Below, piece after piece: positions 11,691 through 45,900 of a DNA stretch of 48,943 nt; the first letter of the stretch is position 1, and each line of letters opens with the position of its first letter. The notes under the pieces were generated by a model. The model was given only the letters and a program-made list of their open reading frames with translations. It was not told the origin of the DNA and did no database searches. Made by a program: the position numbers and the translations under genes. This DNA comes from Thermoanaerobaculia bacterium (lineage in GTDB: Bacteria; Acidobacteriota; Thermoanaerobaculia; Gp7-AA8): the NCBI GenBank assembly GCA_034663965.1, contig JAXDIO010000291.1:1-48943 (forward strand). Reading direction: 5' to 3'.

Positions 11691-11704
11691 TTGTAAGGAT
11701 CGCG

Positions 11705-11786
11705 AAAGGCTTCTCACCACAAAGACACAAAGAGCACAAAGAGAGCTTTCTTTGTGTCCTTTGTGTCTTTGTGGTGAAAAGCCTTT
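11705..11786. repeat. CACAAAG-armed palindrome (ccacaaag acacaaag agcacaaag / loop / complement)
   Basis: Read directly. A second copy lies at 23979-24058. Confidence 0.85.
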
Positions 11787-11805
11787 CAGAGCATGATTCG
11801 CGGCG

Positions 11806-13174: not shown

Positions 13175-13319
13175 CGACGGAACGCTGGCGTCCCGCCGGC
13201 TGGCGTGGCGGCGTCTCGCCGCCACGTGAACGCGGATGCAAGTTGCCTCCGCGCCGGCGTCGCAGAACGCAGGCGCGGGACGCCTGCGGGCCAGCCGGCG
13301 AGACGCCAGCGTTCCGTCG
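13175..13319. repeat. GC-rich compound palindrome with terminal inverted repeat cgacggaacgctggcgtc...gacgccagcgttccgtcg
   Basis: Read directly. Related copies at 17906-18059 and 20847-20976. Confidence 0.8.
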
Positions 13320-13344
13320 TGGCCCGCGCTACCATCCCCGTGGT

Positions 13345-27712: not shown

Positions 27713-27834
27713 GAGACGTCGTTACGATTATTGGCACTTCCGCAATGCCGCAGCGCCGGGGTTTAGTGTAGGATCTCAATGCGTATTGCCTCCGCCGAAT
27801 CGTGGTGTTCGATCGTTCACAGTTTGGGGTGCTT

Positions 27835-30800
27835 ATGAAAATCGCTCGATACCTGCTCGTGGTCTTTAGTTTTACGTTGTTAGTGGCTACGAACCTGATC
27901 GCACAATCCGACCCCGAACCTCCCTGCACGGCTTCGATGACATTTGAGCTGACCAGCACGGGTGTTCTGATACATTTTGAAGGCACTGTACCGGGGCCGG
28001 AATATGCACCTAACGGTGTGCACCTCGCCATCATCGAAGTGTTTCCGGGTCGATTGCAACGGGTGGTGGGGGGCGGCACCTGCGACTTCCCCGCCTCAAC
28101 CTGTTCTACCACCCTTTTTGTTGACGGCTGCGTAAGCGCGCCCCGGTACGGAGGGGACGTGGCACCTTGCCATACTACGCAGGGAACAACCGTCATCAAT
28201 CCTGTCATAGACCGTCAGCCGACAATCAACAAATTCGACGCCAGAGCTTCGAGTGCAAAGATTGATGTGACATTCCCGCATCAGGGTTTTTCTGGCATTC
28301 TTCCTCGAGTCCGTCTGAATTGGGCGCCGTCGAATGAAATCGCTGCTTCTGGCTTTGGCTCCGGTTCTCCGAGCTTCGACGCGAATGGAAACCGTATTCA
28401 GCCTTACGATCCTTCGTTCCCGGCGCCTCCAGGAACGATTGGTGTCTTCGCGACGGCCTTCTCTTGTGATAGTGGACTGGTAGATTTCGCCTTCGCCCCG
28501 TTGCCGGACAAAGACACTGGTTGCGATGGCTCCGCCGCCGCTAATTGTAACGGATGCGAGAAGGGCTGCGTCGGTGATCCAATCCGCACTAGCAACGGTA
28601 ACGTTCGATACACGGAGACCGATCCCCTGCCTTCGAACCGCGCGTTCAAGCTGGTCCGTATCTACGACAGCAAGTCGCCTTCTGCCGGTGTTTTTGGCAC
28701 GCATTGGACATCGCCGTTTGATGCGCATGCGTACACGATCAATCTTGGCTCAGGCTCGCTGGACGATTCCCACCGCGCTGTTTTCCTGCAGACGGAGCGA
28801 AGCCAGAGTGTCGCCTTTGTGCGGCCAACGTCCTCCCAGCCGTACCGCCAGGTCTGGCCTCGCAACCAGGCAGCGCAAGGGAAGCTCACATTCGATGGAA
28901 CGTCCTACATTTATCAGGCGGACGGCGATGGAATCGTCCGTACGTATAACGCTGCAACAGGCTTGATCACCGGCTATCGTTTCGTTGCCGATGACCAGGG
29001 CGTCGCAATTTCCTGGCAAGGCGCTTTCCCAACCACTGTTACGGACAATCGCGGCAACTGGACGCTGAATATCACCAACGACGGGACGCTGATTACGAGC
29101 GTGGGGGTCAGCGGGCAGGCCTCTCTGTTATGGTCGTATATCCATGCAGCTGGGATGCTGATCAACGTAAGCGACGCTGGCGCCAACCTCTGGCGGACGT
29201 ATGTGTATGACAGCAACGCCTTGCTCGATCAGGTACTGGACGCCCGCGGCGCAACGATCGAAAGCCACCAGTACGATGCCGCGGGCAATGGAATTACATC
29301 GAGCGGTCCAAGTGGCGAAGTAACAAGCGTCGTCTACAACCCATCTGACAGGACGCCGCGGACGCCTGACGAAACGATCACCAGCGTCACGTACGGGAGC
29401 AACTATCGCGCAGACTACTACATGCGTCCGATTGCGGGCCGGCTGCGCGTGGTCACCATCAACGGCCCTTGTACTTCCTGTGACATGAACGATGTGGTCG
29501 ATACCTACGATGACCATGGCAACGTCCTGCGCGAGCAGGACGGGCGTGGTTACATCACGTTGTTCACGTACGATCAGAGTGGAAGCACTCTCGTGACTAC
29601 TTCCGGACCGTGGAATCCCGCATCCTGCGATCCGGCCACCGACTCGTTGCAGTGTCGGTTGACGCCGGACGATCTCACGAATGTTGCACTGACAGCGACG
29701 ACCGCGACGAAGAGTGCCAGCTATGCCTATGTAGACGCGAATTGGCCGTCGCGCGCCACGCACATCGCTTCACCCAGTCTCCTGCAGCCCGGTGGAATCA
29801 GGCAGGTGACCACCACGTACGACGCGCTCTCAGGCGAGGCGCTCGTGAGTACCGTCGCTGGCTACACCGGTCAGGACTTCCATCCCGAGGCACATGCGAC
29901 CACTGTTTCTCTGTATGACGGAATTGAAGGCGCGGTGTTCAGTCCGGGGGGGAGCTTTGATCCGACATGGGAGACCAAGCCGCAGCCGCGGGCGTCCCGG
30001 AAGTCAATCGACGGACCTCGAACGGATGCTTCGGACCTCACGAAATACGTCTACTACCCGGTCGATCCAGCGGTCCCGGCCATCCTTCGTGGACGGCTTG
30101 CCGCTGTGCGAAATGCGGTTGGTCACATCGTACGCATGGAGAACTACGATGTCTTCGGCCATGCCACGAGGGTGGTCGACGCAAACGGTGTGGCAACTGA
30201 AACCACCTATGACGCTCTCGGCCGGCTGCGGACTTCTACGTTGAAAGGGGTCGCGGGCTGCGATACGGCCGCAGACCCGCTCTGCGGCACCGATCTGACC
30301 AGCACGAACACATTCGTTCCGCCGAGCGGCCCGCTCACGACTTCGGTCCGGCCGAGCGGTGTGCTGTCCGTTTATTCGTACGACAATCGAGGCCGGGTCG
30401 CCTCGCTCGCTCGGGGTGCTACGGCAGTCAGCCTCTCGGAGCGAATCGAATACGACTACAACCCCGCGAACGACCTCAAGAGCCAGGAGCGGTATGTTGA
30501 TGTCGCGGCCGGAAATGCGGTTAGACGACGGGAGTCGTACAGTTACGACGCCTCGAACCGTCTCGCGTTGCTCACACACGACGACACGACCACCGTTGGC
30601 TATTCGTATGACGGTTCAGGACACCTCATCACAGTCAAGGACGAACGGCATGTCTCACCGAACACGACGAACAGCTACGATGCCGCGGGGCGCCTTTTGA
30701 AAGTGACCCAAGTTCTCTCGGCCGCAGTCGGTGGAACGATCTCGACCCAGTACGGCTACGACATCAATGACAACCTGACCTCGGTCACGGATCCGAACGG

Positions 30801-32919
30801 CAACATTACTACGTACCTGTACGACGATTTCGGTCGGATGCTCAAGCAGGTCAGTCCTGTCACCGGCACGTCGACGTACGCGTACGATGCAGCTGGCAAC
30901 ATCGCCTCCAGTATCGATGCGAATGGAGCAACAACAGTACGGACCTACGACGCGGCGAATCGCGCGCTGACGGCTGTCTCGACATGCCAGACGTCGGAGA
31001 ATACCGACCCGTCTGAGACCGTGAGCTGGACTTACGACGATTCCATGGCGGGCCGGTTCGGCATCGGCCGTCTTGCGGCGATGACCGACCCCTCCGGTTC
31101 CACGAATTACGCCTATGACCGCAGAGGCTCGCTCCGGAGCGAGGACCGCCTGATCGGCACTTGGTCGTCCTCCACGGCCTATCAGTACGATGCGGACGGG
31201 AATCGCACGAAGCTGGGCGACCTCGAATATGCCTACGACCATGCCGGCCGTCCGCTGGCCGTCTCCCGGCGCACCTGTTCGGGCTGCACTCCGACGCCCT
31301 TGATTTCGTCAGCGTCCTACCTTCCGTTTGGACCGGAAACGGATCTCTTCTTCGGCAATGGCACGCGGCAAACCAAGACGTACGACACGCGCTATCGGAT
31401 CACGGAGAACAGGCTCACTGGACCAGGAGCGCTGACGCTCGCGGATTTCGCCTACGTGACGGACGCCGGCGGCAATATCACCACAATTCAGGATTCGGTC
31501 GACGCCGCGTACAACCGGACGTTCGGTTATGACGACATCAACCGCCTGATCACCGCGAACACCGGTTCATCGCTGTGGAGCATCGGGACCTATTCATACG
31601 ATCGGATGGGGAACATGCTGTCCTCACAGATCGGTGACCGTACGGAGGCGTTCACCTATACGGGCACGACACCGCTCATCGCGGCGCAAACCGAGCAAGG
31701 GACGGCATTCGGTATGACCTACGATGCCTCCGGGAACGAGCTGTTCGCCCATTATGTGGCGCCCTCCGCTCATGGCGGCGATGGCGATGGCGATGGCGAA
31801 AGCGGAGGCGGACCAATCCCGCCAAGCAATGGCATCTACGTCAGTCGCACGTACTCCTGCCGTAACCTCATGGCCGCGGAATTCACGTCCAATCAGTACA
31901 GGTGCAGCCACCCGCCATGCCATCCTGGTTTGCCAGGAAACATCTACTTGTACACGTATGACGGCCGAGGCGTGCGGGTGCGGGTCACGGCGAACGGCGG
32001 CGGCCAGGAAAACGAATACGTGTACACGCCGGAGCTACAGTTGCTGCAGCGCAGGAACGCGATTTCCGCCGCGGTCGACGAATTCGTCTGGTTCAACGGC
32101 CACGCCGTGGCCCAACTCTCCTCCCAGACGTCCACTCCCGTCTTTACGTTCACCGACCACCTCGGAACGCCGGTTGCCCAAACAGACGCCGCAGCGAATC
32201 TAGTCTGGTTCGCCGACTACGAGCCGTATGGCCGTATCTATCAAACGCGCCTGTCAAACGTGGACCAGCCTCTCCGTCTGCCCGGGCAGGATGTAGCCTT
32301 CCCGGGTGAAGTGGACGAAAACTACAACATCTTCAGATGGTACCGGAGCGCGTGGGGTCGGTACACTCAGGCGGATCCGATCCGTTCGATAGAATCACCT
32401 TTCGCTTACGCCGATGATCGTCCGCTTATGCTTATTGATCCGACGGGACTCTCGACTGTAAATTTCGGTCCCGTTCAAAAGCATGCCGTCGGTATTGGCG
32501 ACGCGCACCGCGAATGCGCTTCTGCTGCTTTTGGACTAAAGGGATGTGCACGACTCACGGGCTTTAGGTTCGACTGTAAGTGCCAATGCGCTGGAGGAGC
32601 CTTCACGCGAAGCATATCGGTGACGTCGGCCGCAATCGATGTGTTCGCCGCGACGAACGCGCCGACGGACGAATTTATCCAAAAAGGCCTAGTTCCTGTG
32701 GAGGACATTTTTACAGAAGAGATGAAACATGTTAGGGATTTTCAGGCATTTGCGGCTTCTATTAAGGACAGCCTAGATTATCTCGAAGAGACGCCCTACA
32801 CGAGCTCGAGGCAATGCAAGGCAGGCTGCCGGGCCGCTCAGGATTGGTTTATTGCATTGATTAGGCATCATATCGCCGTAGTTGACGCGTCGCATCCGCC
32901 AGGTTACTATGCACCTTGA
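27835..32919 (+). CDS. RHS/YD-repeat polymorphic toxin with Sec signal peptide, Cys-rich N-terminal domain, RHS shell, DPxGL cleavage motif and a variable C-terminal domain
   Basis: MKIARYLLVVFSFTLLVATNLIAQS signal peptide. Dozens of YD repeats (YxYDxxGNL, YDALGRL etc.), then RWYRSAWGRYTQADP and the core-closing LIDPTGL at 32437-32451. Confidence 0.9.
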   Translation: MKIARYLLVVFSFTLLVATNLIAQSDPEPPCTASMTFELTSTGVLIHFEGTVPGPEYAPNGVHLAIIEVFPGRLQRVVGGGTCDFPASTCSTTLFVDGCVSAPRYGGDVAPCHTTQGTTVINPVIDRQPTINKFDARASSAKIDVTFPHQGFSGILPRVRLNWAPSNEIAASGFGSGSPSFDANGNRIQPYDPSFPAPPGTIGVFATAFSCDSGLVDFAFAPLPDKDTGCDGSAAANCNGCEKGCVGDPIRTSNGNVRYTETDPLPSNRAFKLVRIYDSKSPSAGVFGTHWTSPFDAHAYTINLGSGSLDDSHRAVFLQTERSQSVAFVRPTSSQPYRQVWPRNQAAQGKLTFDGTSYIYQADGDGIVRTYNAATGLITGYRFVADDQGVAISWQGAFPTTVTDNRGNWTLNITNDGTLITSVGVSGQASLLWSYIHAAGMLINVSDAGANLWRTYVYDSNALLDQVLDARGATIESHQYDAAGNGITSSGPSGEVTSVVYNPSDRTPRTPDETITSVTYGSNYRADYYMRPIAGRLRVVTINGPCTSCDMNDVVDTYDDHGNVLREQDGRGYITLFTYDQSGSTLVTTSGPWNPASCDPATDSLQCRLTPDDLTNVALTATTATKSASYAYVDANWPSRATHIASPSLLQPGGIRQVTTTYDALSGEALVSTVAGYTGQDFHPEAHATTVSLYDGIEGAVFSPGGSFDPTWETKPQPRASRKSIDGPRTDASDLTKYVYYPVDPAVPAILRGRLAAVRNAVGHIVRMENYDVFGHATRVVDANGVATETTYDALGRLRTSTLKGVAGCDTAADPLCGTDLTSTNTFVPPSGPLTTSVRPSGVLSVYSYDNRGRVASLARGATAVSLSERIEYDYNPANDLKSQERYVDVAAGNAVRRRESYSYDASNRLALLTHDDTTTVGYSYDGSGHLITVKDERHVSPNTTNSYDAAGRLLKVTQVLSAAVGGTISTQYGYDINDNLTSVTDPNGNITTYLYDDFGRMLKQVSPVTGTSTYAYDAAGNIASSIDANGATTVRTYDAANRALTAVSTCQTSENTDPSETVSWTYDDSMAGRFGIGRLAAMTDPSGSTNYAYDRRGSLRSEDRLIGTWSSSTAYQYDADGNRTKLGDLEYAYDHAGRPLAVSRRTCSGCTPTPLISSASYLPFGPETDLFFGNGTRQTKTYDTRYRITENRLTGPGALTLADFAYVTDAGGNITTIQDSVDAAYNRTFGYDDINRLITANTGSSLWSIGTYSYDRMGNMLSSQIGDRTEAFTYTGTTPLIAAQTEQGTAFGMTYDASGNELFAHYVAPSAHGGDGDGDGESGGGPIPPSNGIYVSRTYSCRNLMAAEFTSNQYRCSHPPCHPGLPGNIYLYTYDGRGVRVRVTANGGGQENEYVYTPELQLLQRRNAISAAVDEFVWFNGHAVAQLSSQTSTPVFTFTDHLGTPVAQTDAAANLVWFADYEPYGRIYQTRLSNVDQPLRLPGQDVAFPGEVDENYNIFRWYRSAWGRYTQADPIRSIESPFAYADDRPLMLIDPTGLSTVNFGPVQKHAVGIGDAHRECASAAFGLKGCARLTGFRFDCKCQCAGGAFTRSISVTSAAIDVFAATNAPTDEFIQKGLVPVEDIFTEEMKHVRDFQAFAASIKDSLDYLEETPYTSSRQCKAGCRAAQDWFIALIRHHIAVVDASHPPGYYAP
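32452..32916 (+). other. RHS C-terminal tip (155 aa), unassigned Cys-rich putative toxin domain
   Basis: Begins directly after DPTGL. It has 7 Cys (ECASA, KGCAR, DCKCQCAGG, QCKAGC). It is visibly more AT-rich than the RHS core. I recognise no motif. Confidence 0.5.
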
Positions 32920-33262
32920 TCCTTTGCGTTCCTATTTCGTTGCCTGCATTCTCTTGTTGGTGGCTGGTTGCCGGCGAGCACAGTCTCCGGTTAGGAGGCC
33001 CGTGAACAGCGAACAGTTGGCCACGATCACCCAAAATATGACAGCAACGGAAGTCAGGACTAGAATTGGGGCACCGTCCTTCGAGTGGCCGGTTCGTGTC
33101 TTTTCAAAGCAGGGGTATCCGTTCGACAAATCTTGCGATCAAAAGCCCCTTGCTACAATGTGGGTTTACTACGATGACAGAGGCAGTTCGGCGTGTATTT
33201 ATTTCGACTCCAGCGCACGTGTGATTTGTGCCGAAAGCAACGTAATTGTAATTGCAAATTAG
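32909..33262 (+). CDS. Small lipoprotein, putative cognate immunity protein (possible BamE/SmpA_OmlA-like fold)
   Basis: Overlaps the RHS stop by 11 nt. Lipobox LLVAGC, MTATEVRTRIGAPS segment, and lower GC like the toxin tip. Confidence 0.55.
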   Translation: MHLDPLRSYFVACILLLVAGCRRAQSPVRRPVNSEQLATITQNMTATEVRTRIGAPSFEWPVRVFSKQGYPFDKSCDQKPLATMWVYYDDRGSSACIYFDSSARVICAESNVIVIAN

Positions 33263-33369: not shown

Positions 33370-33477
33370 TTCACCTACACGGTGTCGGTGAACAAACCCA
33401 CTAAGATCGGCTCATTGCCGATTCACGCCGGCGATGCGCGCGCCCATGATGTGCCATCGGTTCCCTTTCCCCAATTC

Positions 33478-33870
33478 ATGAGCGCCAGCACTCCTTCCTT
33501 TGGACGGCAGAAGATTCTGCTCATCGACGATGATGAACTCATCGCCGATTCCCTGCGCCGGTACCTCTCGGTGCAAGGCTGCGACGTCGATGTCGCCCTC
33601 GAGGAAGGAGCGGCGAAGACGCTCATGGGGCAGCAACATTATGGAGTGGTCGTCGTCGATCCGTTTCTGACCGGCGGCGTTCATCTCGACGACTCCGCAT
33701 TGCTCGATTCCATTTCGCTTTTGCAGCCCGATGCGTCAGTGATCGTCGTGACCGGATACGGTTCGAACGATCTGACGCAAATGGCCAGCGCAGCAAAGAT
33801 CTCGTTGCTTTCCAAACCGCAGTCCGTCGTTGCACTCAGCGAATTCATATTCAAAGGATTGTCGACATGA
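33478..33870 (+). CDS. Stand-alone receiver (CheY-like REC) domain protein
   Basis: KILLIDDDELIADSL...VVVVDPFL...VIVVTGYG...LSKP. The ORF is open from GTG 33382, but ATG 33478 gives the usual spacing before the DD pair. The stop overlaps the next ATG (ATGA). Confidence 0.7.
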   Translation: MSASTPSFGRQKILLIDDDELIADSLRRYLSVQGCDVDVALEEGAAKTLMGQQHYGVVVVDPFLTGGVHLDDSALLDSISLLQPDASVIVVTGYGSNDLTQMASAAKISLLSKPQSVVALSEFIFKGLST

Positions 33871-36800
33871 AACGTTCCCTGGCCGCATTGCTGCTGATTC
33901 TTGCATTCACCACCACGTCTGGCGCCGCCACCACGAGGAAAAAGGCGCGCAAGGCTTCAAAGAAGACGACGACGATCGAGCAGACCGCGCAAGCCGGCGG
34001 AGCTGTCCGAGCGACGAATATCCGTCGCGAAAAGAAGCAAAGCGATTCCGAGGGGACAGTCGTGCCGAAGCCGGGGCCCATTCCTTTTGTGGCGCCGGTC
34101 GAACTGCAGTTGAAACGCGCCAGCAGCCGGCGATTCGATCTGCGGGGACTGCCCCAGACCAAGCCGATCCAACTCGAGCGCGCGGAGCTCGAGGATCCGA
34201 CGCCACACCCGGTCACTGTGCAAGGGACCGGCGCTGTGCCGGAGCCGAGCATTCCTTCCGTGCAGCCGACCGCCGCAGCTCCGGCGCCTGCGCCGATCAA
34301 CGTCTTCGAAGGTCTCGATCGTTTCAACTGGGGCGCCGGCAGCCCTCCCGATACGAACGGCGACGTCGGCCCGAACAACTACATCCAGACCGTCAACACC
34401 TCCATCGGGGTCTTCCGTAAGTCCGACGGCTTCCAACAGGCCGCCTTCACCTTCAACACCTTCATGAGCCAGGGCGCCTTCGGCAATCTGTGCGACACGA
34501 ACAACTTCGGCGATCCGGTCGTCCTCTACGACACGTTCGAGAACCGCTGGATCATCACCGATTTCGCCTTCCTGACTGACGCGAGCGGCAACGTGCTCGC
34601 TCCCGCCTTCCAATGTTTCGCCGCATCCATGACTGGTGATCCGGTTGCTGGTGGGTGGAACTTCTACTCCATCCAGATAACGGACGCCCTCAACGACTAT
34701 GAAAAGTTCGGCATCTGGCCGGACGGTCTCTACATGTCGGCGAACATGTTCACCTTCGGCGCCAACTCGGCGTTCAAGACCGCGCGCGCCTGGGCATTCA
34801 ACAAGGCCCAGATGTATGCCGGCAGCCCGACCGTAAAGGTTGTCACATTTGACATCCCCGGGGGCGACTTCGCGGTCATGCCCAGCAACGCCCGTCTGCA
34901 GACCGGCACGCCGCCTCCCGGGCGTCCGAATCTGTTCATGTCAACCTGGCAATTCACCAACGCTGTCACGATCTATAAGTTCCACGTCGACTGGAACAGC
35001 GTCGCGCTCTCCACCTTCACCGGTCCCGATACACCACTGGCCGCCACGAGCTGGCCGAACGCGAACGTAGCAAATGCCGCGCAGCCCGGTACGTCGCAGC
35101 TGCTGGACGTCCTCCAGATCCGGGCCATGGTGCAGAACCAGTACACGAACTTCGGCGGCACCGAGTCGCTCTGGATTCCTCATACGGTACGTCGAGGGAA
35201 CACGACCGGTCTGGCGGCACCGCGCTTCTATCAGGCGAACGTGACCGGCGGCACAGTGGCCGCGAATCTCGTGCAGGCTGCGACCTTTGATCCAGACGCC
35301 GCCAACGTCATCAACCGCTTCATGCCCAGTCTGGCCCTCGATCGCGCCGGCAACATGGCCATGGGCTACAGCACGTCCAATTCAACGGCGGGGACAGGGT
35401 TTCCGTCGATCAAGTACGCAGGCCGGCTGGCTGCCGACCCCGTCAACACGTTTAGCCAGACCGAACAGGTCATGTTTACCGGGACCGCCTCCCAGTTGAG
35501 CTCCACACGCTGGGGCGACTACAGCGGGATGGCGCTCGACCCCGACGGCTGCACGTTCTGGTACACGAGCGAGTACGCCACCGGGCTTGATACTCCGCCC
35601 GTTCCTCCCGCCACGACCTCGCCCGGATTCAATCAGCGCTGGAAGACGAAGTTCGGCTTGTTCGGACCATTCCCGGGATGTACGCCCGTCGGCGCCGGCG
35701 GCACCGTTTCGGGAACGGTGACTGTCAATCCCGGCGGTGCGCCGATCTCCGGCGCCACCGTCAACCTCGGTGCCGGGCGTTCGACCACTACCGACGGCTC
35801 CGGCAATTACTCCTTTACCGGCATTCCCGCGGGAACCTATCCGTCGATGACGGCAACCAAACCTGGGTTCGTCTCAGGCTCGGCATCGTCGATCGTCGTC
35901 ACGGACGGCGGAACGACCACGCAGAACTTCTCGCTCACCGCCGCGCCCCCCAGCGCCTGTCTGACCGATACGACGCAGGCCGATTTCCAGGCCGGCATTG
36001 CTTCCGCGACCATCGACATCAACACCTCTCCCGGCGACGTCACGTTGTCGAATGCCCCGGCCTCTGACCAGGCGAACACCGCCGGCACGACAACCGGAAC
36101 CGGCTTTGGTACTCCTAACTGGACCGGCCAGACCTTCATCGCCGGGGTCAGCGGTTTACTCGTGAAAGCCGACGGCCAGCTCTTCTGCAACGGTTGCGGC
36201 GCGACGCCCCCGGACCTCACGCTTTCACTCCGCGCGACCGCAGCTGGTTTGCCGACTGGCGCTGATCTCGCCACTGCCACGATCTCCGGTGCGCAGTTCG
36301 CCAGCGGCGCGACCGTCCTCTTCACCGGGACGTTCGGCACGCCGGTCTCGATCACGTCCGGAACGCAATACGCACTCATCCTGCGTCCCGTCTCCGCCCC
36401 CGCGGGCAGCGGCTATTTCTGGATTCGCTCGTCGCCGAGCACGTACGCCAACGGTTCGCGCGTCCTGTCGGCCGACAGCGGCGCTACCTGGTCCGCCGAT
36501 ACCACGCGCGATTTCAACTTCAGAACGTACGTGCAGACCGGTTACGCAGCGTCAGGCAATTTCGTCTCGTCTCCCAAGGATTCCAACCCCGCGGGCGGCA
36601 ACACGCCGATATGGTCGACCTTCTCATGGAATGCGACCGTACCGGCGAACACCACACTGCAGTTCCAGCTCGCCGGTTCGAACAACCCCAACGGACCGTT
36701 CAACTTCGTCGGACCGGACGGCACGGCAGGAACCTTCTTCACCACCTCGCCCGTGCAGCTCTCGCCGCAGTTCTACAACCTCCGATTCCTCGAATACAAA

Positions 36801-39362
36801 GCATTCTTCGCCACCACCAACAGCGCCGTCACGCCGACGCTGAACGACGCGACCGCCTGCTTCAACGATGTCAATTGCAGCAGCACCGTCGCTACCATCA
36901 CCCCGACGCCGGCGACGGTCTGCAGCAACTCGACCGGCAATACCGCTTCGGGTCCCGCCGGTATGACCACCTACGCCTGGGGCATCGCCAACGGCACCAT
37001 CACCTCGGCGACGAATACCCAGTCGATCACCTACACGGCGGGTGCGTCCGGCACGGTCACGCTGAGCCTCACCATCACCGCGCCGAACGGTTGCATCGTC
37101 TCCGGTTCCACGCCCGTAACGATCAGCGGCTTCCCGGCTACGCCGACCATCACGCCCACTCCGGCGTCGGTCTGCGCGAACTCCACCGGCAACACCGCCG
37201 CCGGTCCGGCTGGCGCGACGACCTACGCCTGGTCGATCGTCAACGGCACGATCACCTCGGCCACGAACATCCAGACCATCACCTACACCGCCGGCGCTTC
37301 CGGCACCGTTGATCTGACGCTCACCGTGACCAACGCCGCCGGCTGCGCGACGCCGAACACGGTCAACGTGCCCATCAACGCCAACCCGGCCACGCCAACG
37401 ATCACGCCGACTCCGGCGAGCGTCTGCGCCAACTCCACCGGCAATTCCGCCGCTGGTCCGGCCGGCGCGACCAGCTACGCGTGGTCGATCACCAACGGCA
37501 CGATCACCTCGGCCACGAACATCCAGACCATCACCTACACCGCCGGCGCTTCCGGCACGGTCGGCCTCACGCTCGTCGTGACCAACGCCAGCGGCTGCTC
37601 GGCGACGAACACGTCGAACGTGACCATCAACGCCAACCCGGCCACGCCGACAATCACGCCGACTCCGGCGGCCGTCTGCGCCAGCTCCACCGGCAACTCC
37701 GCAGCTGGTCCGGCCGGCGCGACGAGTTACGCGTGGTCGATCACCAACGGCACGATCACCTCGGCTACGAACATCCAGACCATCACCTACACCGCCGGCG
37801 CTTCCGGCACGGTCGGCCTGACGCTCGTCGTGACGAACGCCTCCGGCTGCTCGGCCACGAACACGTCGAACGTAACCATCAACGCCAACCCGGCCACGCC
37901 GACGATCACGCCCACTCCGGCGGCGGTCTGCGCCAGCTCCACCGGCAACTCCGCGGCGGGTCCGGCGGGCGCGACCAGCTATGCATGGTCGATCACCAAC
38001 GGCACCATCACCTCGGCCACGAACATCCAGACCATCACCTACACCGCCGGCGCTTCCGGCACGGTCGGACTGACGCTCGTAGTCACCAACGCCTCCGGCT
38101 GCTCGGCGACCAACACCGTCAACGTGACAATCAACGCGAAGCCGAACGCCACCATCACCGCTGCGTCGAGCACGCCTTCCGGCTCAACCGGTAACGTCGC
38201 ATCCGTCGCCAACGCCGGCGTCGGAGCGACCTACGCCTGGTCCGTCACCGGCGGCACTCTCACTGGCGGCAACAACACCCCGAGCATCACCTACACCGCG
38301 GGCGCGGCCGGAACGTTGACCATCAACGTCACCGTGACCAATGCAGCAGGTTGCAGCGACGCCAAGTCGGCGAACGTCACCGTTACTGCTCCCCCAGTGA
38401 CGGTTACCTCTGTCTCGCCGGTCGGCGGCACCATCGCCGGCGGTTCGGCAGTCACGATCAACGGCACCGGCTTCAACGCCGGCGCGACCGTTACCTTCGG
38501 CGGATCGGCAGCCACCAACGTGGTGGTCGTCAGCTCGATCAAGATCACAGCGCGGACGCCGGCTCATGCCGCAGGCGCCGTCAACGTGACCGTGACGAAC
38601 ACCGATACATCCAACGGCACGTTGACCAACGGCTATCTCTACAAACCGCAGCAGTTCGATCCGAACAACGACGGCACCATCTCTCCGATGGACATCATCT
38701 ACCTGATCAACTACCTCTACATGGGTGGCCCGCCGCCTGCGGGAGCCGCTGGTCTGTTGTCGGGTGATGCGAACGGCGATGGCGTGGTCAACCCGCTCGA
38801 TATCTTCTATCTCATCAACTATCTCTTCCTCGGCGGACCGCGCCCGAACTCGATCGTCGATCGGCCGGTGACGTCATTGGCAATCGGAACGGACGCGCCG
38901 CAACTCGACGGCTCGATCGCACTCGGCAAACCGGTTCTCCGCGAGGGACGCTACTTCGTACCGGTCATCATGACGGCCAATAAGGGATCGATCGCGCCGC
39001 AGGCGATGTCGCTGCGCGTTCACTTCGACGGCGAAGTGGGCAACGCCACGATCCGCAAAGCGGGAGCCGCGAAGGATCTTGCAGTCGCATTTGAGACCAA
39101 CCGTCTTGCAGGCAACGACCTGTCGTACCTCGTTTCGTACGGCAATCTCTCCCTCGGGACATCAGCTTCAGCCGTCGTCGCCGAGATCGAGATTGAGAGC
39201 AGCAACGCCACGCTCAGTATCGATCCGCAGCTGACGATGCTCAGCAATCAGGCCGGAACCATGACCGCGTCTGTTGCGAACGGCAAACTCCAGGTGACCG
39301 GCGTGAAGATCGGCAACGGGTCAGCGCCGCAGCCCCGCACACCGGACCACAAAGTGAATTAA
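33867..39362 (+). CDS. Giant secreted multidomain surface protein. Domains: signal peptide, Lys-rich linker, ~550-aa unassigned domain, CarboxypepD_reg-like, ~350-aa unassigned region, 6 tandem Ig-like repeats, IPT/TIG, dockerin-like, cohesin-like.
   Basis: 1831-aa ORF. GTVSGTVTV...TTDGSGNYSFTGIPAGTY (Cna-B/CarboxypepD_reg). Six 84-aa repeats with conserved Cys pairs. SVSPVGGTIAGGSAVTINGTGF (IPT). Two DxNxDGxxxxxD Ca-loops followed by YLINYL. Confidence 0.85.
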   Translation: MKRSLAALLLILAFTTTSGAATTRKKARKASKKTTTIEQTAQAGGAVRATNIRREKKQSDSEGTVVPKPGPIPFVAPVELQLKRASSRRFDLRGLPQTKPIQLERAELEDPTPHPVTVQGTGAVPEPSIPSVQPTAAAPAPAPINVFEGLDRFNWGAGSPPDTNGDVGPNNYIQTVNTSIGVFRKSDGFQQAAFTFNTFMSQGAFGNLCDTNNFGDPVVLYDTFENRWIITDFAFLTDASGNVLAPAFQCFAASMTGDPVAGGWNFYSIQITDALNDYEKFGIWPDGLYMSANMFTFGANSAFKTARAWAFNKAQMYAGSPTVKVVTFDIPGGDFAVMPSNARLQTGTPPPGRPNLFMSTWQFTNAVTIYKFHVDWNSVALSTFTGPDTPLAATSWPNANVANAAQPGTSQLLDVLQIRAMVQNQYTNFGGTESLWIPHTVRRGNTTGLAAPRFYQANVTGGTVAANLVQAATFDPDAANVINRFMPSLALDRAGNMAMGYSTSNSTAGTGFPSIKYAGRLAADPVNTFSQTEQVMFTGTASQLSSTRWGDYSGMALDPDGCTFWYTSEYATGLDTPPVPPATTSPGFNQRWKTKFGLFGPFPGCTPVGAGGTVSGTVTVNPGGAPISGATVNLGAGRSTTTDGSGNYSFTGIPAGTYPSMTATKPGFVSGSASSIVVTDGGTTTQNFSLTAAPPSACLTDTTQADFQAGIASATIDINTSPGDVTLSNAPASDQANTAGTTTGTGFGTPNWTGQTFIAGVSGLLVKADGQLFCNGCGATPPDLTLSLRATAAGLPTGADLATATISGAQFASGATVLFTGTFGTPVSITSGTQYALILRPVSAPAGSGYFWIRSSPSTYANGSRVLSADSGATWSADTTRDFNFRTYVQTGYAASGNFVSSPKDSNPAGGNTPIWSTFSWNATVPANTTLQFQLAGSNNPNGPFNFVGPDGTAGTFFTTSPVQLSPQFYNLRFLEYKAFFATTNSAVTPTLNDATACFNDVNCSSTVATITPTPATVCSNSTGNTASGPAGMTTYAWGIANGTITSATNTQSITYTAGASGTVTLSLTITAPNGCIVSGSTPVTISGFPATPTITPTPASVCANSTGNTAAGPAGATTYAWSIVNGTITSATNIQTITYTAGASGTVDLTLTVTNAAGCATPNTVNVPINANPATPTITPTPASVCANSTGNSAAGPAGATSYAWSITNGTITSATNIQTITYTAGASGTVGLTLVVTNASGCSATNTSNVTINANPATPTITPTPAAVCASSTGNSAAGPAGATSYAWSITNGTITSATNIQTITYTAGASGTVGLTLVVTNASGCSATNTSNVTINANPATPTITPTPAAVCASSTGNSAAGPAGATSYAWSITNGTITSATNIQTITYTAGASGTVGLTLVVTNASGCSATNTVNVTINAKPNATITAASSTPSGSTGNVASVANAGVGATYAWSVTGGTLTGGNNTPSITYTAGAAGTLTINVTVTNAAGCSDAKSANVTVTAPPVTVTSVSPVGGTIAGGSAVTINGTGFNAGATVTFGGSAATNVVVVSSIKITARTPAHAAGAVNVTVTNTDTSNGTLTNGYLYKPQQFDPNNDGTISPMDIIYLINYLYMGGPPPAGAAGLLSGDANGDGVVNPLDIFYLINYLFLGGPRPNSIVDRPVTSLAIGTDAPQLDGSIALGKPVLREGRYFVPVIMTANKGSIAPQAMSLRVHFDGEVGNATIRKAGAAKDLAVAFETNRLAGNDLSYLVSYGNLSLGTSASAVVAEIEIESSNATLSIDPQLTMLSNQAGTMTASVANGKLQVTGVKIGNGSAPQPRTPDHKVN
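36885..38396 (+). repeat. Six in-frame tandem 252-bp repeats (84-aa Ig-like/PKD-like units), with unit starts at 36885, 37137, 37389, 37641, 37893 and 38145
   Basis: Period counted directly. Units 3-5 are nearly identical in protein sequence but not in DNA. Confidence 0.9.
38658..38846 (+). other. Dockerin-like module (two EF-hand-type Ca-binding repeats)
   Basis: DPNNDGTISPMDIIYLINYLYMGGPPP ... GDANGDGVVNPLDIFYLINYLFLGGPRP. Confidence 0.7.
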
Positions 39363-39379
39363 GCGGTATAAGGAACGTT

Positions 39380-40066
39380 ATGAAATCGAAAGCAAATCAA
39401 TTGAAGACCGTCCGTGCCGCGCTGCTGATCGGTGTGATCGCCAGCTTCGTATCGACGACTGCCATCTGGGCGGGATCGATCTCCACCCCCGACGTGGTCA
39501 CGGTAGCCACGGTCACCGGTCCGCAGTTCAGCACGGTCGATGTGCCGGTCTTCATCCGCGATTCCTCCGGCACGCCGCTCGGCCTTGATCAACCGGCCGG
39601 ATTCCACATTCAGGCGTACTCCATCAAGGTGAACTACGCGCCCGCGTCGGCCGTGCAGTCGATTACGTTCACGCGTGGTGGCGTCACCACATCGCTGACG
39701 CCCGCGTCTGAAAGCAGCCCGAGCAGCGCTGGATCGATCTCTCTCATCGATTCATTCAGCGAGGCGACCAACCCGATCCCTCTAACGCTCAACGGCGCAT
39801 TGCCGGGTAATCAGGTGGCCACATTGCACGTGACGCTTGCCGCCACAGCGACACCTGGGACGATCATCACGCTCACGCTCGATCCGACGGCGCTCACACA
39901 GCTGTCGAACGCCTCGGGAACGGTGGGCGAGATGGTCAGCAACGGCACTCTGACGCTGGTCAACGGCTCGATCACCGTCGTACCCTCGGTTCCCGCGCTC
40001 GGACACATCGCACTTCTGGTGCTGGCCATCTCGCTGGCCTTCATCGCCATCCGCTCGCGCTTCTGA
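39380..40066 (+). CDS. Cohesin-like domain protein with a C-terminal IPTL/PEP-CTERM-style sorting or anchor segment
   Basis: Signal peptide. The cohesin-like pattern is VTVATVTGPQFSTVDVPVFIRD...IQAYSIKVNYAP...ITLTLDP...NGTLTLVNGSITV. The C-terminus reads VPALGHIALLVLAISLAFIAIRSRF. An aaggaa RBS lies 6 nt upstream of the ATG. Confidence 0.7.
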   Translation: MKSKANQLKTVRAALLIGVIASFVSTTAIWAGSISTPDVVTVATVTGPQFSTVDVPVFIRDSSGTPLGLDQPAGFHIQAYSIKVNYAPASAVQSITFTRGGVTTSLTPASESSPSSAGSISLIDSFSEATNPIPLTLNGALPGNQVATLHVTLAATATPGTIITLTLDPTALTQLSNASGTVGEMVSNGTLTLVNGSITVVPSVPALGHIALLVLAISLAFIAIRSRF

Positions 40067-40069
40067 TCT

Positions 40070-40107
40070 TCAGAGCCGGCCCGGTTCGCCGGGCCGGCTC
40101 TTTCTTT
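40070..40107 (+). terminator. Rho-independent terminator (agagccggcccgg-ttcg-ccgggccggctct followed by ttcttttg)
   Basis: 13-bp perfect GC-rich stem, tetraloop and T-rich tail, immediately after the stop at 40066. Confidence 0.8.
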
Positions 40108-40201
40108 TGATTCCGGTCCTCGGAATGCGTGTAAGCCGCTAACAGTTATTTCGCCTTTGCACGCGTCCATTGCGCATCACCAGCCCCGAGGATCCCATTT
40201 A

Positions 40202-42058
40202 ATGAACCCGAAGCAAACCCGCCTCGCGCCGTTCGCGGCGATTCTCCTACTGCTCCTTTTCATCCTAGCCACCGCTGCGCCGGCCTCGGCTCAGGACGCC
40301 ATTACTGTCGGCACCGTGACCGCTAGCGGTAACACTGTTGATGTTCCCGTTTACGTGCGCGATGTCGCAGGTACGCCCTTGGGAATTGATCAGCCTGTCG
40401 GTTCGAAGATTCAGGCTTTCAGCATCAAGGTCATCTATGCGCCGACGGCTGCGGTGCAGTCGGTCACGTTCGCCAAAGCCGGAATCACAGCGGGATTGAA
40501 TGGCAATGAGAACTCAGCGAATCCGTCCGGCAGTATCTCCTGGATCGCAAGCTTTCAGGAATCGACAAACCTCATCCCTTTCACACTGAACGCTCCCGCT
40601 CCGGGCGATCAGGTAGCTCATCTCGTCTTTACCCTCTCACCATCTGCTGCGCCAGGCTCCTCGATTAGTCTCACGCTCGATCCGTCGCTGACGGAGCTCA
40701 TCAATGACAGCGGGACGAAGGGCGAATTTCCGCCCGGCGCACTTACCCTGGTCAATGGCGCGATCAACATCCCCAATCTGACGCTGCAGATCGTTCCGAA
40801 CAACCGGGTGATCGAGGTGAATGAATCGACGACGTACACGGTGCAGACCAGCGCCAACGTCGGGTCGAACACGACTGTGACGCTTTCATCTTCGAATCCC
40901 GGTATCGCCACGATGCCGCCATCGGTGGACATCGCCGCCGGCTTGCATTCTGCAAATTTCACCGTCATCGGCTCCGCAGTCGGCGCAGCCACGATCACCG
41001 CCACGCTGCCGGCTGGCGCAGGCGGTGCGAATGCAACCGCGGAGTTGACCGTCAATCCGGCCACCGTTCCCTGCACGATTCCGACAGCGCCGCAGATCAG
41101 CGCTCCGGCAACCGCCAGCACCGGCACGCAGTACAGCGTCAGTTGGGCGGCGGTGAGCGATGCCACCGGCTACTCCGTCGACGAATCGACCGACGCGAAT
41201 TTCCTGACCGTGACCACCGCCAACGTGGCTACCACCTCCGCGTCGTTCACGCACGCGGCGGCGAATCGCTACTACTACCGCGTTCGCGCTCGCAATCAGA
41301 GCACCGGTTGCAACACGTTCTCGCTCAACTCGAACGTCGTCTCGGTGCTCGTCAGCGTCGCGCCGGTCGCGCAAACGCGCATCCTCCCGGTCGTCGGCTC
41401 CGTGCCCGGCAATTTCGGCGCGTACTTCAAAACCTCCGTTCAGCTCTACAACGCGAAGAGCAGCGCCGTGTCGGGGAAGATCGTCTTCCACACGCAGGCA
41501 GTGTCGGGATCGTCGAACGATCCGTCGCTCGCGTATTCGATTCCGGCAGGCAAGAGTCTCTCGTACGCCGACCTCCTCCCCGCGATGGGCATCGCCAGCG
41601 GACTCGGAAGCGCGGACGTTGTCGCCGACGCCGGCTCGCCGTTCCCGGTGCTGCTCGCGCGCGTCTTCAACGACGCCGGCGCGGCCGGAACGACCGGGCT
41701 CGCGCTCGAGCCGATGGCCACATCTGACGCGCTGCAGAACGGCGACACCGGAGTGCTGATCGCTCCGGCGGACGCGCGTTTCCGTCTCAACATCGGCGTG
41801 CGCACGCTGGAGCAGGGCGTGGCCTTCAATTTGACCGTTCGTAACAAAGACGGCGTGGCGGTGAAAACGACGGCGAAGAGTTTCGGACCGACGTTCTTCC
41901 GCCAGATCGGATCAACCGAAATTCTCGACGGCTACGCACTCGCCGGCGGCGAGACGATCACGATCCAGATCACATCCGGCAGCGCCTTCGTCTACGGGTC
42001 AACGACCGACAACACCACGCAGGATCCCAGCGTGCAGTTCGCGAAAAAGGTGGAGTAG
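40202..42058 (+). CDS. Secreted cohesin-like + Big_2-like + FN3-like protein with an unassigned ~225-aa C-terminal domain
   Basis: Signal peptide ...ATAAPASAQD. The N-terminal domain is paralogous to 39380..40066. VTLSSSNPGIATMPPSV...ATITATL (Big_2-like). YSVSWAAVSDATGYSVDEST...YYYRVRARN (FN3-like). ATG 40202 is preferred to the ORF-track start 40157, which is a non-ATG codon (ttg). Confidence 0.75.
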   Translation: MNPKQTRLAPFAAILLLLLFILATAAPASAQDAITVGTVTASGNTVDVPVYVRDVAGTPLGIDQPVGSKIQAFSIKVIYAPTAAVQSVTFAKAGITAGLNGNENSANPSGSISWIASFQESTNLIPFTLNAPAPGDQVAHLVFTLSPSAAPGSSISLTLDPSLTELINDSGTKGEFPPGALTLVNGAINIPNLTLQIVPNNRVIEVNESTTYTVQTSANVGSNTTVTLSSSNPGIATMPPSVDIAAGLHSANFTVIGSAVGAATITATLPAGAGGANATAELTVNPATVPCTIPTAPQISAPATASTGTQYSVSWAAVSDATGYSVDESTDANFLTVTTANVATTSASFTHAAANRYYYRVRARNQSTGCNTFSLNSNVVSVLVSVAPVAQTRILPVVGSVPGNFGAYFKTSVQLYNAKSSAVSGKIVFHTQAVSGSSNDPSLAYSIPAGKSLSYADLLPAMGIASGLGSADVVADAGSPFPVLLARVFNDAGAAGTTGLALEPMATSDALQNGDTGVLIAPADARFRLNIGVRTLEQGVAFNLTVRNKDGVAVKTTAKSFGPTFFRQIGSTEILDGYALAGGETITIQITSGSAFVYGSTTDNTTQDPSVQFAKKVE

Positions 42059-42685: not shown

Positions 42686-42991
42686 TTATTCAGCGGCCCA
42701 CGCCAGAAAGATGTCGAGGATCTCTGCAAGCGTGGTCACGTCACCCGCGCCGTTGAACGTGTTTTCCTCCACGTAGCAGCGCAGCCACGGCGGTTGTGGG
42801 TCGCTCGACAGATCACCGCGTTTGACTTCATCGAAGGGCTTACTTTCGAGTGTCGTTCCCCGGAGGCTGATCTTCAACCACCACCCAGGATTGTCAGTCG
42901 ACCGGACAGAGATGCCGTGATCGTGCTCCCATTCCCCGTCGCACTGCTTGGCGAACCATGCCTGCAACTGCTGCAAGGTATCCGAGCGCAT
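42686..42991 (-). CDS. Imm53-family polymorphic-toxin immunity protein
   Basis: LQAWFAKQCDGEWEHDHGISVRSTDNPGWWLKISLRGT...LAEILDIFLAW matches my recollection of the Imm53 hallmark (CDGxWEH...DNPGW). Confidence 0.7.
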   Translation of the reverse strand: MRSDTLQQLQAWFAKQCDGEWEHDHGISVRSTDNPGWWLKISLRGTTLESKPFDEVKRGDLSSDPQPPWLRCYVEENTFNGAGDVTTLAEILDIFLAWAAE

Positions 42992-45900
42992 ACGTGATCA
43001 CAAGCATCCACCGAGCACCCACGTGTACCTGCAGTATCCAGGCCATTCTTGGACGACACGGCGGACAGCGCCGATTCAGAGCGTCGTACGTCCTCGCCGT
43101 CGTCGCGTTGTTCGCGTCCGTCACGGTGCTGAGGTTGCCTGCGGCATCGTATGCGTAAGTGGTGACGCCCGTGACGGCACTTGTCTGCCTGATCATGCGG
43201 CCGAAGTCATCGTAGACGTACGACGTCAGGTTGCCGTTGGGGTCCGTTACGGACGTGAGATTGCCGAGGACATCGTAGGCGTAAGCGGTCGCGATCTGGC
43301 CTCCTGGCGCTGAGGACAGTGTTTGCATTACCGAGGCGAGGCGATTCGCAGGATCGTACGCGTAAGACGTATTTGGCGCCGTGTGCCGTTCGTCCTGAAC
43401 GCTGACGAGATTGTTGGCGCCGTCGTAGTGGTAGACGATCTTGCTGCCGTCAGGATGATCGATCTCGCGCAAACGCGCGAACGAGTCATACAGGAATGCG
43501 TCCGAGCGCGTCATTGTCCATGCGCCGGGATGTCCGCCGAGGTAGCGTTCGGCAGATTTGTGACCGGTGGCCGGGTCGTAGTCGTATTCGATCCGTTCAT
43601 AGGCGGTCGCGGATACCTGGCGCGTCGTTGCCGTCGTTCGGCCGCGGTCGTCGTACTCGAAGGTTGTAGCTCCGCCTCCAGGCGTGGTTGTCGAGGCGAT
43701 CGGACCGAGCGCGGGCTGATAGGTGCGGGAGTTGACGATGTCGGTTCCACACAGGGGATCGGCGCCCGTATCGCATCCAGACACGCCCTTCAGCGTCGAG
43801 GTGATCAGGCGCCCGATCGTGTCGTATGAGGATTCCGTCGCTATGCCATTTGGATCAACTGTGCGGCCTGCGTTGCCGAAGACGTCGTAATTTTCAAAGC
43901 GGGTGATGTGTCCCGCGGCGTTTCGTAACGCGGCGAGATGTCCGCGCCATGTTGCAGGGACGGCAGTGTCAATCGGGTAGTACACCGATGTCGTTGTGTC
44001 AGTGACGTCGGTGCGGGGACCATCGCTGACCTTCCGAAGGCCGCTGGGTTGGGAAAGGGTCAACCACGCCGCGTTGAATGCACCTCCCGGATTGAACGCC
44101 GCGGCTTCGGTGCCGTTGTACAGGCTCGTGTTCGACGTGTACTGGACTTGTTGCGCAGGGTTGCCGGTCTCTCCTGTCGTGACCTGCTGGGTGATCGCGC
44201 CCGTAGCTGGATCGAGTTGAATCGCCACGGTGCGGACCTGATTGAGATCGAGCACGCTGGCCGTCGAAGTGACGGTTGCAATATCGGGCCAGTTGGCGTC
44301 GCCGTAGGTGTAGCTCGTCGTCAATGTCGAAGATGTTGGCGTGAGATCGACCGTGAGTAACGACGTGGGCGTCTGCCTGCAGTGGCCTGCGTCGTTGGCC
44401 GGATCACAACCGGTAGGGCGGTAAGGACCGCTGAGGGTGGTGACGCGGTCGTTCGCATCAAACTCGCGCACGCTGATGTAGCCTCGGGAATCCTGCTCCC
44501 GAAGGAGATGTCCATTCAGCAGATCGTAGGCGTATACGGCGTCGTTTGTTCCGCAGGTTGCACAGTGGCCGATGATCTGCACCGTCCGCGGACGTCCGGC
44601 GATGATTCGAGTGTAGTACTCGGTAACCGCGCCAGTACCTGACGTTGTTCGGGTGAGCGTTTCGGAGGGGTCGCGTCCATCTGTGTAGTCGATCGAGGTA
44701 ATGTCGTCCTGATCTGATATCGATGACGTCGCGCGTGGTGCCAGGCCCGCGTAATCATGAGACTCCATCAGAGATCCGCGGGCGTCGTACGCTGCCGTGA
44801 GACCATTGTTGTACTCGTACCTTCGCCACGCCGCTCCCGAAGGTCCTGTCACATTCACGAGATTACCGCTGCCATCGTAAGTGTAGGTCCAGGCCAGCGA
44901 GGTACCGTCGATGGCGATGGAGTTGATCCGGTTTGCAGTATCGGGCGTGATCGTCCAGCCCCAATTGCCCCAGGAGTCGGTCACATGTGATGGAACGCCG
45001 CTGGCATCGTAAGAAATGACTACGTCGCGGCCACCGGCGGCCCGAGAATGTACGCGCAACACGCGTCCGGATCCCGCGTCAAAAATCGTCTCTGTTGCAC
45101 TGCGAGGTTCGCGCAGCGTGAATGTGCCCGCGCCCGGAATGAGGATGGCCGGCGTACTCCCCCGGGGCCACATCTGAAGCCAGCCGCCATCGACGTTCTG
45201 AAAAAGGTACTGGGAACTCGCGGCGGTTCTCACTTCGAGAAAGGTCGTGCCGAGGGTCTGCGATTGGTACGTCCGCATCTTTGCGTCGAAGAGACTCTTC
45301 CAGCCGTTTCCGAAGAATCCCCCGCCGCCCTGGCGATCGTAGGTTCGCATGAGCGGGGCGAAGTCGCTTCCCGGCAACGCATCGCGGTCGGTCATGCGCA
45401 TGTTGCCGTTGGCTAATCGGATCGGTTTTCCTGCGCAAAACGAACAGGACGAACCTGACGATGCATCTCCCGACCCTGGACATTCATTGTCGCCGCTGTT
45501 GAGGACCGTGGAAACCTTTCTATCCCCGCATGCCACGACAGTCAGCATTACCATCGTTGAGTCGGAACCGTCGGGCCAAGCGCTGAATCCCACCGTTTGG
45601 TGCCCTGTGAGGTTGTGGTCGCCGGGAAAATAGCCTGGGGATGTCGAGCTTCCGAGACGTTCGACAACTAAGCCGTTATCGGTCCATGCCGAGTCAGCGT
45701 CATATTTTACTTCGCCAAAAATCTCATATGGCGCTGGGTTAATGGCGTTTACGGCTGTGATCGAAGGAGTGTGGTCAAAGTCAAAGGTCTTTGTCTCGAT
45801 GTACGGCGGGTCATCCGGAACACCGCATTCTCCATTTTCTTCGTTTACTTTGGAGCAGGTAACGCTCATAGACCAGGAGTGGGTTCCCTGGAGGCATGAG

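Follow-up and report, generated by a model that had tools for sequence, protein, structure and literature searches.

Organization of the locus

The subject of this report is a three-gene locus (G1, G2 and G3) in a stretch of 48,943 bases, hereafter the window, from contig JAXDIO010000291.1 of a Thermoanaerobaculia bacterium (Acidobacteriota; assembly GCA_034663965.1). The locus specifies one dockerin, three mutually homologous domains of predicted cohesin fold and one C-terminal sorting or anchor signal, which bears out the parts list of a preliminary description made from the sequence alone. It is discussed here as a putative attachment module of a diderm bacterium.

G1, the giant of the three, is publicly annotated as "hypothetical protein". 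All three products have N-termini which, read off the translations, resemble signal peptides. The open reading frame (ORF) of G3 begins at 40157, and the actual start codon is an ATG at 40202 with GAGGA just upstream, in agreement with the public gene call. G1 and G2 are separated by 17 nt within which lies an AAGGAA ribosome-binding site, and a strong terminator-like hairpin is present only after G2, an arrangement which argues for coupling of the first two genes (Table 1). The interval between G2 and G3 is absent altogether in many orthologous loci, and its hairpin may be a clade-specific attenuator reducing G3 expression.

Table 1. Features of the G1-G2-G3 locus and of the neighbouring DNA, numbered from the first base of the window
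Feature	Position	Strand	Remarks
GH15 gene	9858-11837		only glycoside hydrolase gene in the window; unrelated to the module; without dockerin
Upstream RHS-repeat gene	27802-32919	+	RHS core domain; upstream of the module
Small BamE-like ORF	32882-33262	+	after the upstream RHS gene; sub-threshold match, E 0.0013
Receiver-only response regulator	33382..33870	+	Pfam Response_reg, E 4.2e-10
G1	33867..39362	+	1831 aa; giant secreted multidomain protein; dockerin-cohesin pair at C-terminal end
G1, N-terminal conserved domain (aa 133-611)	34263..35699	+	candidate payload
G1, CarboxypepD_reg-like beta-sandwich (aa 613-691)	35703..35939	+	Pfam PF13620, E 5.3e-15
G1, middle domain (aa 696-1100)	35952..37166	+	kept in orthologous G1 proteins
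G1, PKD-like repeat array	36897..38387	+	about six repeats; Pfam PKD_6, PKD_4, K319L-like_PKD
G1, IPT/TIG domain (aa 1512-1587)	38400..38627	+	Pfam PF01833, E 3.1e-13
G1, type I dockerin (aa 1598-1660)	38658..38846	+	DxNxDGxxxxxD calcium loop present twice, with a YLINYL(Y/F)xGGP helix after each copy
G1, CohB (aa 1676-1820)	38892..39326	+	C-terminal cohesin-fold domain (AF2, Foldseek, hhalign)
G2	39380..40066	+	228 aa; signal peptide, CohA (39485-39988), IPTL-CTERM-like C-terminal anchor (39989-40063)
Terminator-like hairpin	40072-40101	+	G2-G3 interval; 13-bp stem with 11 GC pairs; 40072..40111 with the T-run
G3	40202..42058	+	618 aa; N-terminal CohA-type domain, Big_2, FN3-like and C-terminal domains
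Downstream RHS-repeat gene	42894-46211	-	no RHS core match

The dockerin of G1

The preliminary description had placed a canonical-looking dockerin at 38658-38846 and suggested that the Pfam model be run against it. Residues 1598-1653 of G1 score 38.0 bits with Dockerin_1 (PF00404; gathering threshold 22.9; E 1.9e-9), and both calcium loops are intact and almost symmetric. A six-frame regular-expression search of the whole window returned exactly two calcium-loop sites, at 38658 and 38766, and the two 27-residue repeats that contain them are identical at 17 of 27 positions. In the AlphaFold 2 (AF2) model of the dockerin together with the cohesin-like domain that follows it, helices occupy residues 18-30 and 54-66 of the segment, each with a predicted local distance difference test score (pLDDT) above 90; for the dockerin itself the value is about 92-94. 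Matches of the segment to PDB sequences are weak (best E 0.0057) and are almost all to dockerins. By both its PF00404 score and its duplicated loop, this is a genuine type I dockerin.

The cohesin-fold domains

The type of domain shared by G2 and G3 is named CohA and that at the C-terminus of G1, CohB. At their N-termini G2 and G3 share 57% identity across 166 aa (E 2e-50) as well as the motifs quoted for them previously, in keeping with the claim that these domains are mutually paralogous. The preliminary description had also seen a beta-rich domain with cohesin-like features behind the dockerin; this is CohB, which in a profile-profile comparison (hhalign) is related to CohA with a probability of 99% (E 2.4e-18). 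Its profile matches G2 at 1e-13 and G3 at 1e-11, and two loops specific to CohA are absent from the G1 copy.

The AF2 model of G2, built from 38 homologues, is of moderate confidence (pLDDT 71.9). Using Foldseek against the PDB, all 50 of the 50 matches listed for it were cohesins, the best being 6kge_A (E 3.3e-8, template modelling score 0.72). The 242-aa segment of G1 covering dockerin and CohB gave a pLDDT of 86.5 and a predicted template modelling score (pTM) of 0.82 with 34 homologues; the top 16 Foldseek matches of CohB were again all cohesins (best 2xdh, E 2.2e-6, template modelling score 0.66). By these matches both models are assigned to the cohesin fold, a nine-stranded beta-sandwich or jelly roll, and G3 is assigned to it through its 57% identity to G2. 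From the matches of the models and the mutual homology of the domains we conclude that all three are, as modelled, cohesin-fold domains of a divergent subfamily, despite the silence of the Pfam cohesin model, and the unrelated Ig-like family that had been mentioned as the competing assignment did not appear among these matches.

A scan of G1, G2 and G3 with NCBIfam matched no cohesin model, and phmmer and hmmsearch comparisons of G2 and of a merged family profile with PDB sequences gave only sub-significant or irrelevant matches. A CipA cohesin sequence yielded many weak in-register matches; it served for picking candidates only and is not evidence.

The C-terminus of G2

The extreme C-terminus of G2 reads VPAL-GHIALLVLAISLAFIAI-RSRF, that is, a short motif, a transmembrane helix and a basic cluster, which is the tripartite C-terminus of IPTL-CTERM proteins (TIGR04174 / PF18203). 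In the tails of orthologous G2 proteins a VPTL, IPTL or VPAL motif precedes a helix and arginyl- or lysyl-residues; five of ten such tails (L032, L042, L053, L030 and L048) pass TIGR04174, with 21.2-27.3 bits versus a cutoff of 20.5, and one G2 homologue (P0062) has been named an IPTL-CTERM protein by NCBI. Some orthologous tails (e.g. L048 8954-9622 and L052 1682-2374) show weak matches to positions ~25-59 of NF033207, "midcut-by-XrtH protein", at 14-29 bits against a cutoff of 45. This hints that the IPTL-CTERM-type signal may resemble an exosortase-type recognition segment. Those ORFs of the window that were scanned gave no match to an exosortase-like sorting enzyme. To our knowledge, neither a sorting enzyme nor a passenger function has been established for the IPTL-CTERM signal, and in the literature searched no cohesin is described as its passenger.

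Conservation of the gene order

The gene cluster is conserved among Thermoanaerobaculia from soil. Homologues of G2 are numerous in the Thermoanaerobaculia (658) and also occur in other metagenome-assembled genomes (MAGs) of Acidobacteriota. Domains were mapped in the window and in 60 fetched loci, where a G2-type gene was defined as one encoding CohA plus a C-terminal hydrophobic anchor. Fifty-four such genes were counted. In every evaluable case (47/47), in genomes of Thermoanaerobaculia, the G2-type gene directly follows a gene ending in CohB, the remaining 7 of the 54 being cut by a contig end, and a recognisable dockerin loop is present in 43 of those 47 upstream genes. Downstream lies a G3-type gene in 27 instances and another G1-type gene in 10. 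Tandem arrays of the form (G1-G2)n-G3 exist in L008/L009, L011, L015, L020 and L052; some G1 proteins of these arrays have another N-terminal payload on the same dockerin-CohB tail.

A divergent cohesin family associated with dockerins

Searched exhaustively with the merged profile (HMMER), a set of 1.84 billion representatives yielded 401 clusters at E<=1e-3, and the canonical cohesins were never reached; with only 401 clusters, the family is small and distinct. Its members are publicly named "hypothetical protein". Among 93 members scanned with Pfam, many of them fragments, Dockerin_1 was the commonest companion (22), followed by TIG (13), fn3 (12), IPTL-CTERM (3) and canonical Cohesin (2). 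Of the 26 members that exceed 1,300 aa, 21 have dockerin loops 80-240 aa before the C-terminal family domain, and P0451 has the opposite order, with an N-terminal cohesin and a C-terminal dockerin. Mean p-distances of 0.28 for the dockerin, 0.33 for CohA and 0.53 for CohB make the dockerin and CohA the most conserved parts.

The 925-aa metagenomic protein P0476 contains two family domains followed by a canonical Dockerin_1 and a canonical Pfam Cohesin (E 1.1e-12), and has the tail of a type IX secretion system (T9SS) substrate. A degenerate GGP-type dockerin-like segment stands between its two family domains, and this protein may hold two parallel types of plug and socket.

A putative attachment module

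On balance we lean towards an attachment module of the cohesin-dockerin type, outside any cellulosome, in diderm Acidobacteriota, in which the dockerin of G1 docks on the cohesin of G2 and G1 is tethered in this way. G1 would be exported via its signal peptide, its type I dockerin, close to the C-terminus, being loaded with calcium. The dockerin, presumably in a calcium-dependent manner, would plug into the single cohesin of G2, which in turn would be held at the envelope by its IPTL-CTERM-type C-terminal signal, leaving G1 and its candidate payload displayed non-covalently on the cell. G3, with a CohA-type cohesin and no anchor, would be an alternative partner for the same dockerin and would couple G1 to whatever its Big_2, FN3 and C-terminal domains bind. 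CohB may cap the G1 dockerin in cis or recruit the dockerin of another copy of G1. Cohesins bind dockerins through the 8-3-6-5 face; that the domains of this locus would do likewise has indirect support in the co-occurrence with dockerins, in the synteny and in the pTM of the dockerin-CohB segment.

Several observations weigh against this reading, the first of which concern the identity of the cohesins. Pfam Cohesin (PF00963) gave no match at E<=1 in G1, G2 or G3; the preliminary description had said that failure of a cohesin model to hit would tell against it, and on this formal point it fails. In the relatives P0376 (E 0.073) and P0484 (E 0.038) PF00963 aligns in register on the first strands, below threshold, and PDB cohesin sequences match the family profile at E 0.16-0.58; these links to canonical cohesins are sub-significant, though they agree with each other and keep the register. 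The silence of PF00963 would suit a locus in which nothing pairs, the cohesin-fold domains being generic beta-sandwich spacers or CBM-like binders of carbohydrates or other ligands (CBM, carbohydrate-binding module) and the dockerin a calcium-binding stabiliser, as possibly many orphan dockerins of environmental bacteria are. CBM2 folds do appear among the weaker Foldseek matches of CohB, from rank 17 on (E 4e-4); closely related GGP-type dockerins are found in many proteins from Zixibacteria and others, in fragments that show no cohesin; and the strictly conserved CohA loops TPLGLDQPxG and NPIPFTL, modelled at low confidence, could be a different ligand site. Cohesins nevertheless rank 2-4 orders of magnitude ahead of every other fold, and time and again across 400 clusters a family domain is fused to a dockerin or lies next to one, in either order, so that we regard a locus without pairing as quite improbable.

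A second group of points concerns the anchor. The G2 tail of the window, VPALGHIALLVLAISLAFIAIRSRF, lies below both cutoffs, with 16.3 bits versus 20.5 for TIGR04174 and 10.7 versus 20.8 for PF18203. Of the IPTL/PEP-CTERM-like anchor described earlier, the tripartite architecture stands, as do the orthologous tails that pass; the copy at hand is sub-threshold. The sorting enzyme and final location of G2-type tails are left unexplained by the attachment of G1 through G2, as is the way in which G1 would cross the outer membrane. A signal peptide and IPTL-CTERM are also combined in mela_00855, a small S-layer protein of the diderm Methylomirabilis lanthanidiphila (PMC8671808), and by this analogy G2 might be a subunit of an S-layer or envelope lattice with G1 and G3 as its accessories. 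One weak PDB sequence match of the G1 tail, to an "S-layer" chain (8q1o_A, E 0.097), points in the same direction. Such a role is very improbable: no similarity of G2 to S-layer proteins, in sequence or in fold, was found, and its constant 1:1 pairing with a dockerin-bearing gene is easier to reconcile with an anchor than with an abundant lattice protein.

The remaining points concern the partner of the dockerin. Three cohesins for one dockerin is a stoichiometry that is unexplained unless the genome holds other dockerin-bearing clients. The correlation of distance matrices is slightly higher between dockerin and CohB (r 0.56) than between dockerin and CohA (0.45-0.47); it is confounded, since dockerin and CohB share one polypeptide, and was dropped as a means of choosing the partner because, with this common history, it does not discriminate. 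The pTM of the G1 segment, obtained for two domains and a low-confidence linker, implies that the model places the dockerin confidently on CohB, in cis or in trans, and hence CohB rather than G2 could be the true partner.

Were the dockerin-CohB contact primary, the dockerin of one G1 could bind the CohB of the next, or two G1 molecules could bind each other reciprocally, giving head-to-tail chains or dimers with the membrane-proximal cohesin of G2 as the start of the chain and G3 as a cap or alternative end. Throughout the family, members of the CohA subtype (L056, L059) included, the order is fixed as dockerin, short spacer of constant length, cohesin; the high pTM was reached in spite of a floppy 25-aa linker, implying a confidently placed contact; and the dockerin-CohB correlation is the highest of those calculated. 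AF2 cannot separate cis from trans, however, CohB is the least conserved of the domains, and a fibre alone leaves both the invariable G1-G2 adjacency (47/47) and the very high conservation of CohA unexplained, which makes this arrangement unlikely. A bolder version, clearly unlikely in our judgement, treats the dockerin-cohesin tail as a self-complementary connector through which G1-type proteins with interchangeable payloads would polymerise as non-covalent surface fibres, rooted by G2 and terminated or cross-linked by G3. If true, diderm bacteria would have a fibre or adhesin system built on cohesin and dockerin, and the IPTL-CTERM signal would gain its first assigned passenger function.

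Comparison with known cohesin-dockerin systems

The module is not a cellulosome, in which a multi-cohesin scaffoldin integrates glycoside hydrolases (GH) that bear dockerins, usually together with a CBM. Each protein here has one cohesin, Pfam and NCBIfam recognised neither a GH nor a CBM family in G1, G2 or G3, and the earlier statement that no glycoside hydrolase is attached can be kept in that form, as none recognised, the 480-aa N-terminal domain of G1 being unassigned.

The favoured reading, with G1 held by G2, has its nearest counterpart in Ruminococcus flavefaciens, where ScaE, a single cohesin tethered by a C-terminal sortase motif, holds the dockerin-bearing adhesin CttA (PMC4266597). 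In both cases a small single-cohesin protein with a C-terminal sorting signal would hold a large non-enzymatic dockerin adhesin, as ScaE does with its XDoc partners (CttA, ScaB), and ScaE cohesins (PDB 2zf9, 4iu2/4iu3) are among the structural matches of G2. ScaE is linked by sortase, through LPXTG, to Gram-positive peptidoglycan, whereas G2 has an IPTL-CTERM-type tail and belongs to a diderm; ScaE is part of a cellulose-degrading system, whereas no CBM or GH was recognised in G1-G3; and G1, unlike the partners of ScaE, has no recognised X-module and carries a cohesin of its own after the dockerin.

The toxin-complex modules of Clostridium perfringens (PDB 2jh2, 2o4e, 2vo8), which are structural matches of CohB, are likewise non-cellulosomal, cohesin-like and part of large secreted multidomain proteins. 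They differ in being borne on Gram-positive GH84 and GH33 enzymes, and in linking secreted enzymes to one another, not to a dedicated anchor. Cohesins and dockerins outside the cellulosome also exist in Archaeoglobus fulgidus, the cohesin of which (2xdh) is the best match of CohB and matches G2 as well; Peer et al. reportedly described in 2009 the presence of cohesin and dockerin in the same proteins of this archaeon. In contrast to the window module, the A. fulgidus system is archaeal, its domains are seen by standard models, and it has neither a conserved anchor-cohesin operon nor IPTL-CTERM.

For Candidatus Stygibacter (Cloacimonadota) a cellulosome-like system that would attach to the surface by a C-terminal sorting domain has been proposed from MAGs (PMC8542988). 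It resembles the present case as a cohesin-dockerin assembly deduced from MAGs of a non-Firmicute and provided with a C-terminal sorting domain. It is distinguished by CBMs and several cohesins on its scaffoldin, by hydrolases that bear dockerins, by a T9SS C-terminal domain and by cohesins recognisable by InterPro. In the G1-G2-G3 module each protein has a single cohesin, no enzyme is recognised, the sorting signal is of the IPTL-CTERM kind and Pfam does not detect the cohesin family.

Non-cellulosomal cohesins and dockerins as such are therefore already known from A. fulgidus, C. perfringens and the proposed Cloacimonadota system. What is new is a conserved, partner-defined operon in Acidobacteriota, a single cohesin with a putative IPTL-CTERM anchor, a fixed dockerin-cohesin tail common to giant proteins, and a cohesin subfamily missed by standard models. 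Such pairs have long been catalogued, very few of them with a defined set of partners. Here the candidate partners are laid out in an operon, namely one dockerin, an adjacent anchor cohesin and a second, soluble cohesin protein, in a widespread and poorly understood soil phylum, which makes this a clean and directly testable case. As standard domain models miss CohA and CohB, surveys based on PF00963 will under-count systems of this kind. The reading also proposes a concrete role for an IPTL-CTERM protein and may supply new orthogonal plugs and sockets with which proteins could be displayed on Gram-negative hosts.

Other domains of G1 and G3

The N-terminal conserved domain of G1 (~480 aa) has more than 1,965 homologues with 54-83% identity in several phyla, their hosts including classes of Acidobacteriota, Gammaproteobacteria (Tahibacter, Dokdonella), Paucibacter, Anaerolineae, Verrucomicrobiae and Deltaproteobacteria. 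It has no Pfam match and no PDB sequence match, even by profile. Many aspartyl-, tryptophanyl-, arginyl- and histidyl-residues are invariant, and a RWGDYS...DPDGCTFWY motif marks its end. To judge from its sequence, it looks like an uncharacterised enzyme or binding domain that has spread horizontally.

Neither Pfam nor the PDB sequences gave a match to the middle domain of ~400 aa, in which a perfect Asp-box, SADSGATW, was noted at 36468-36491 (G1 aa 868-875). The PKD-like modules are near-identical and are encoded by five tandem copies of a 252-nt DNA unit (36897-38144; 86% matches; Tandem Repeats Finder); their copy number varies from ~1 to 10 among orthologous G1 genes.

Of the Big_2-like, FN3-like and C-terminal domains claimed for G3, Big_2 is just above the Pfam threshold (23.1 vs 22.8) and the FN3-like assignment comes down to one weak match (E 0.16 to 3mpc). 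The C-terminal domain (aa 386-618; 41357-42055) is conserved, comprises ~230 aa ending in ...GSAF(I/V)YGSTTDNTTQDPSVQF, and has no Pfam or PDB sequence match. It is also present in unrelated architectures, namely a 505-aa protein (L059 1873-3387, minus strand) and the 1,500-aa proteins P0407 and P0496.

Neighbouring genes

The stop codon of the receiver-only response regulator overlaps the start of G1 as ATGA, and at least 12 other loci have a homologue of this gene immediately before G1; the regulator probably belongs to the G1-G2-G3 unit as its fourth member. That a cytoplasmic signalling domain should be translationally coupled to a secreted giant is an oddity. Two-component genes had been noted near the module and are indeed present, this receiver-only regulator being often the gene directly upstream of G1.

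The module had also been placed between two RHS loci, and RHS genes do flank it on both sides. They are incidental, as the orthologous loci examined carry the module without RHS, and a linkage between the two was rejected; in two of these loci (L001, L002) its neighbours are a LytTR/histidine kinase pair and exbB-exbD-tonB. The RHS genes look like insertions. The downstream one may be truncated, and the BamE-like ORF behind the upstream one is possibly an immunity gene.

Further upstream, two adjacent genes for YfhO-like membrane proteins, 13243-15588 (+) and 15503-17905 (+), lie downstream of NTP_transferase/epimerase nucleotide-sugar genes and the GH15 gene, a stretch which looks like an envelope-glycan locus unrelated to the module.

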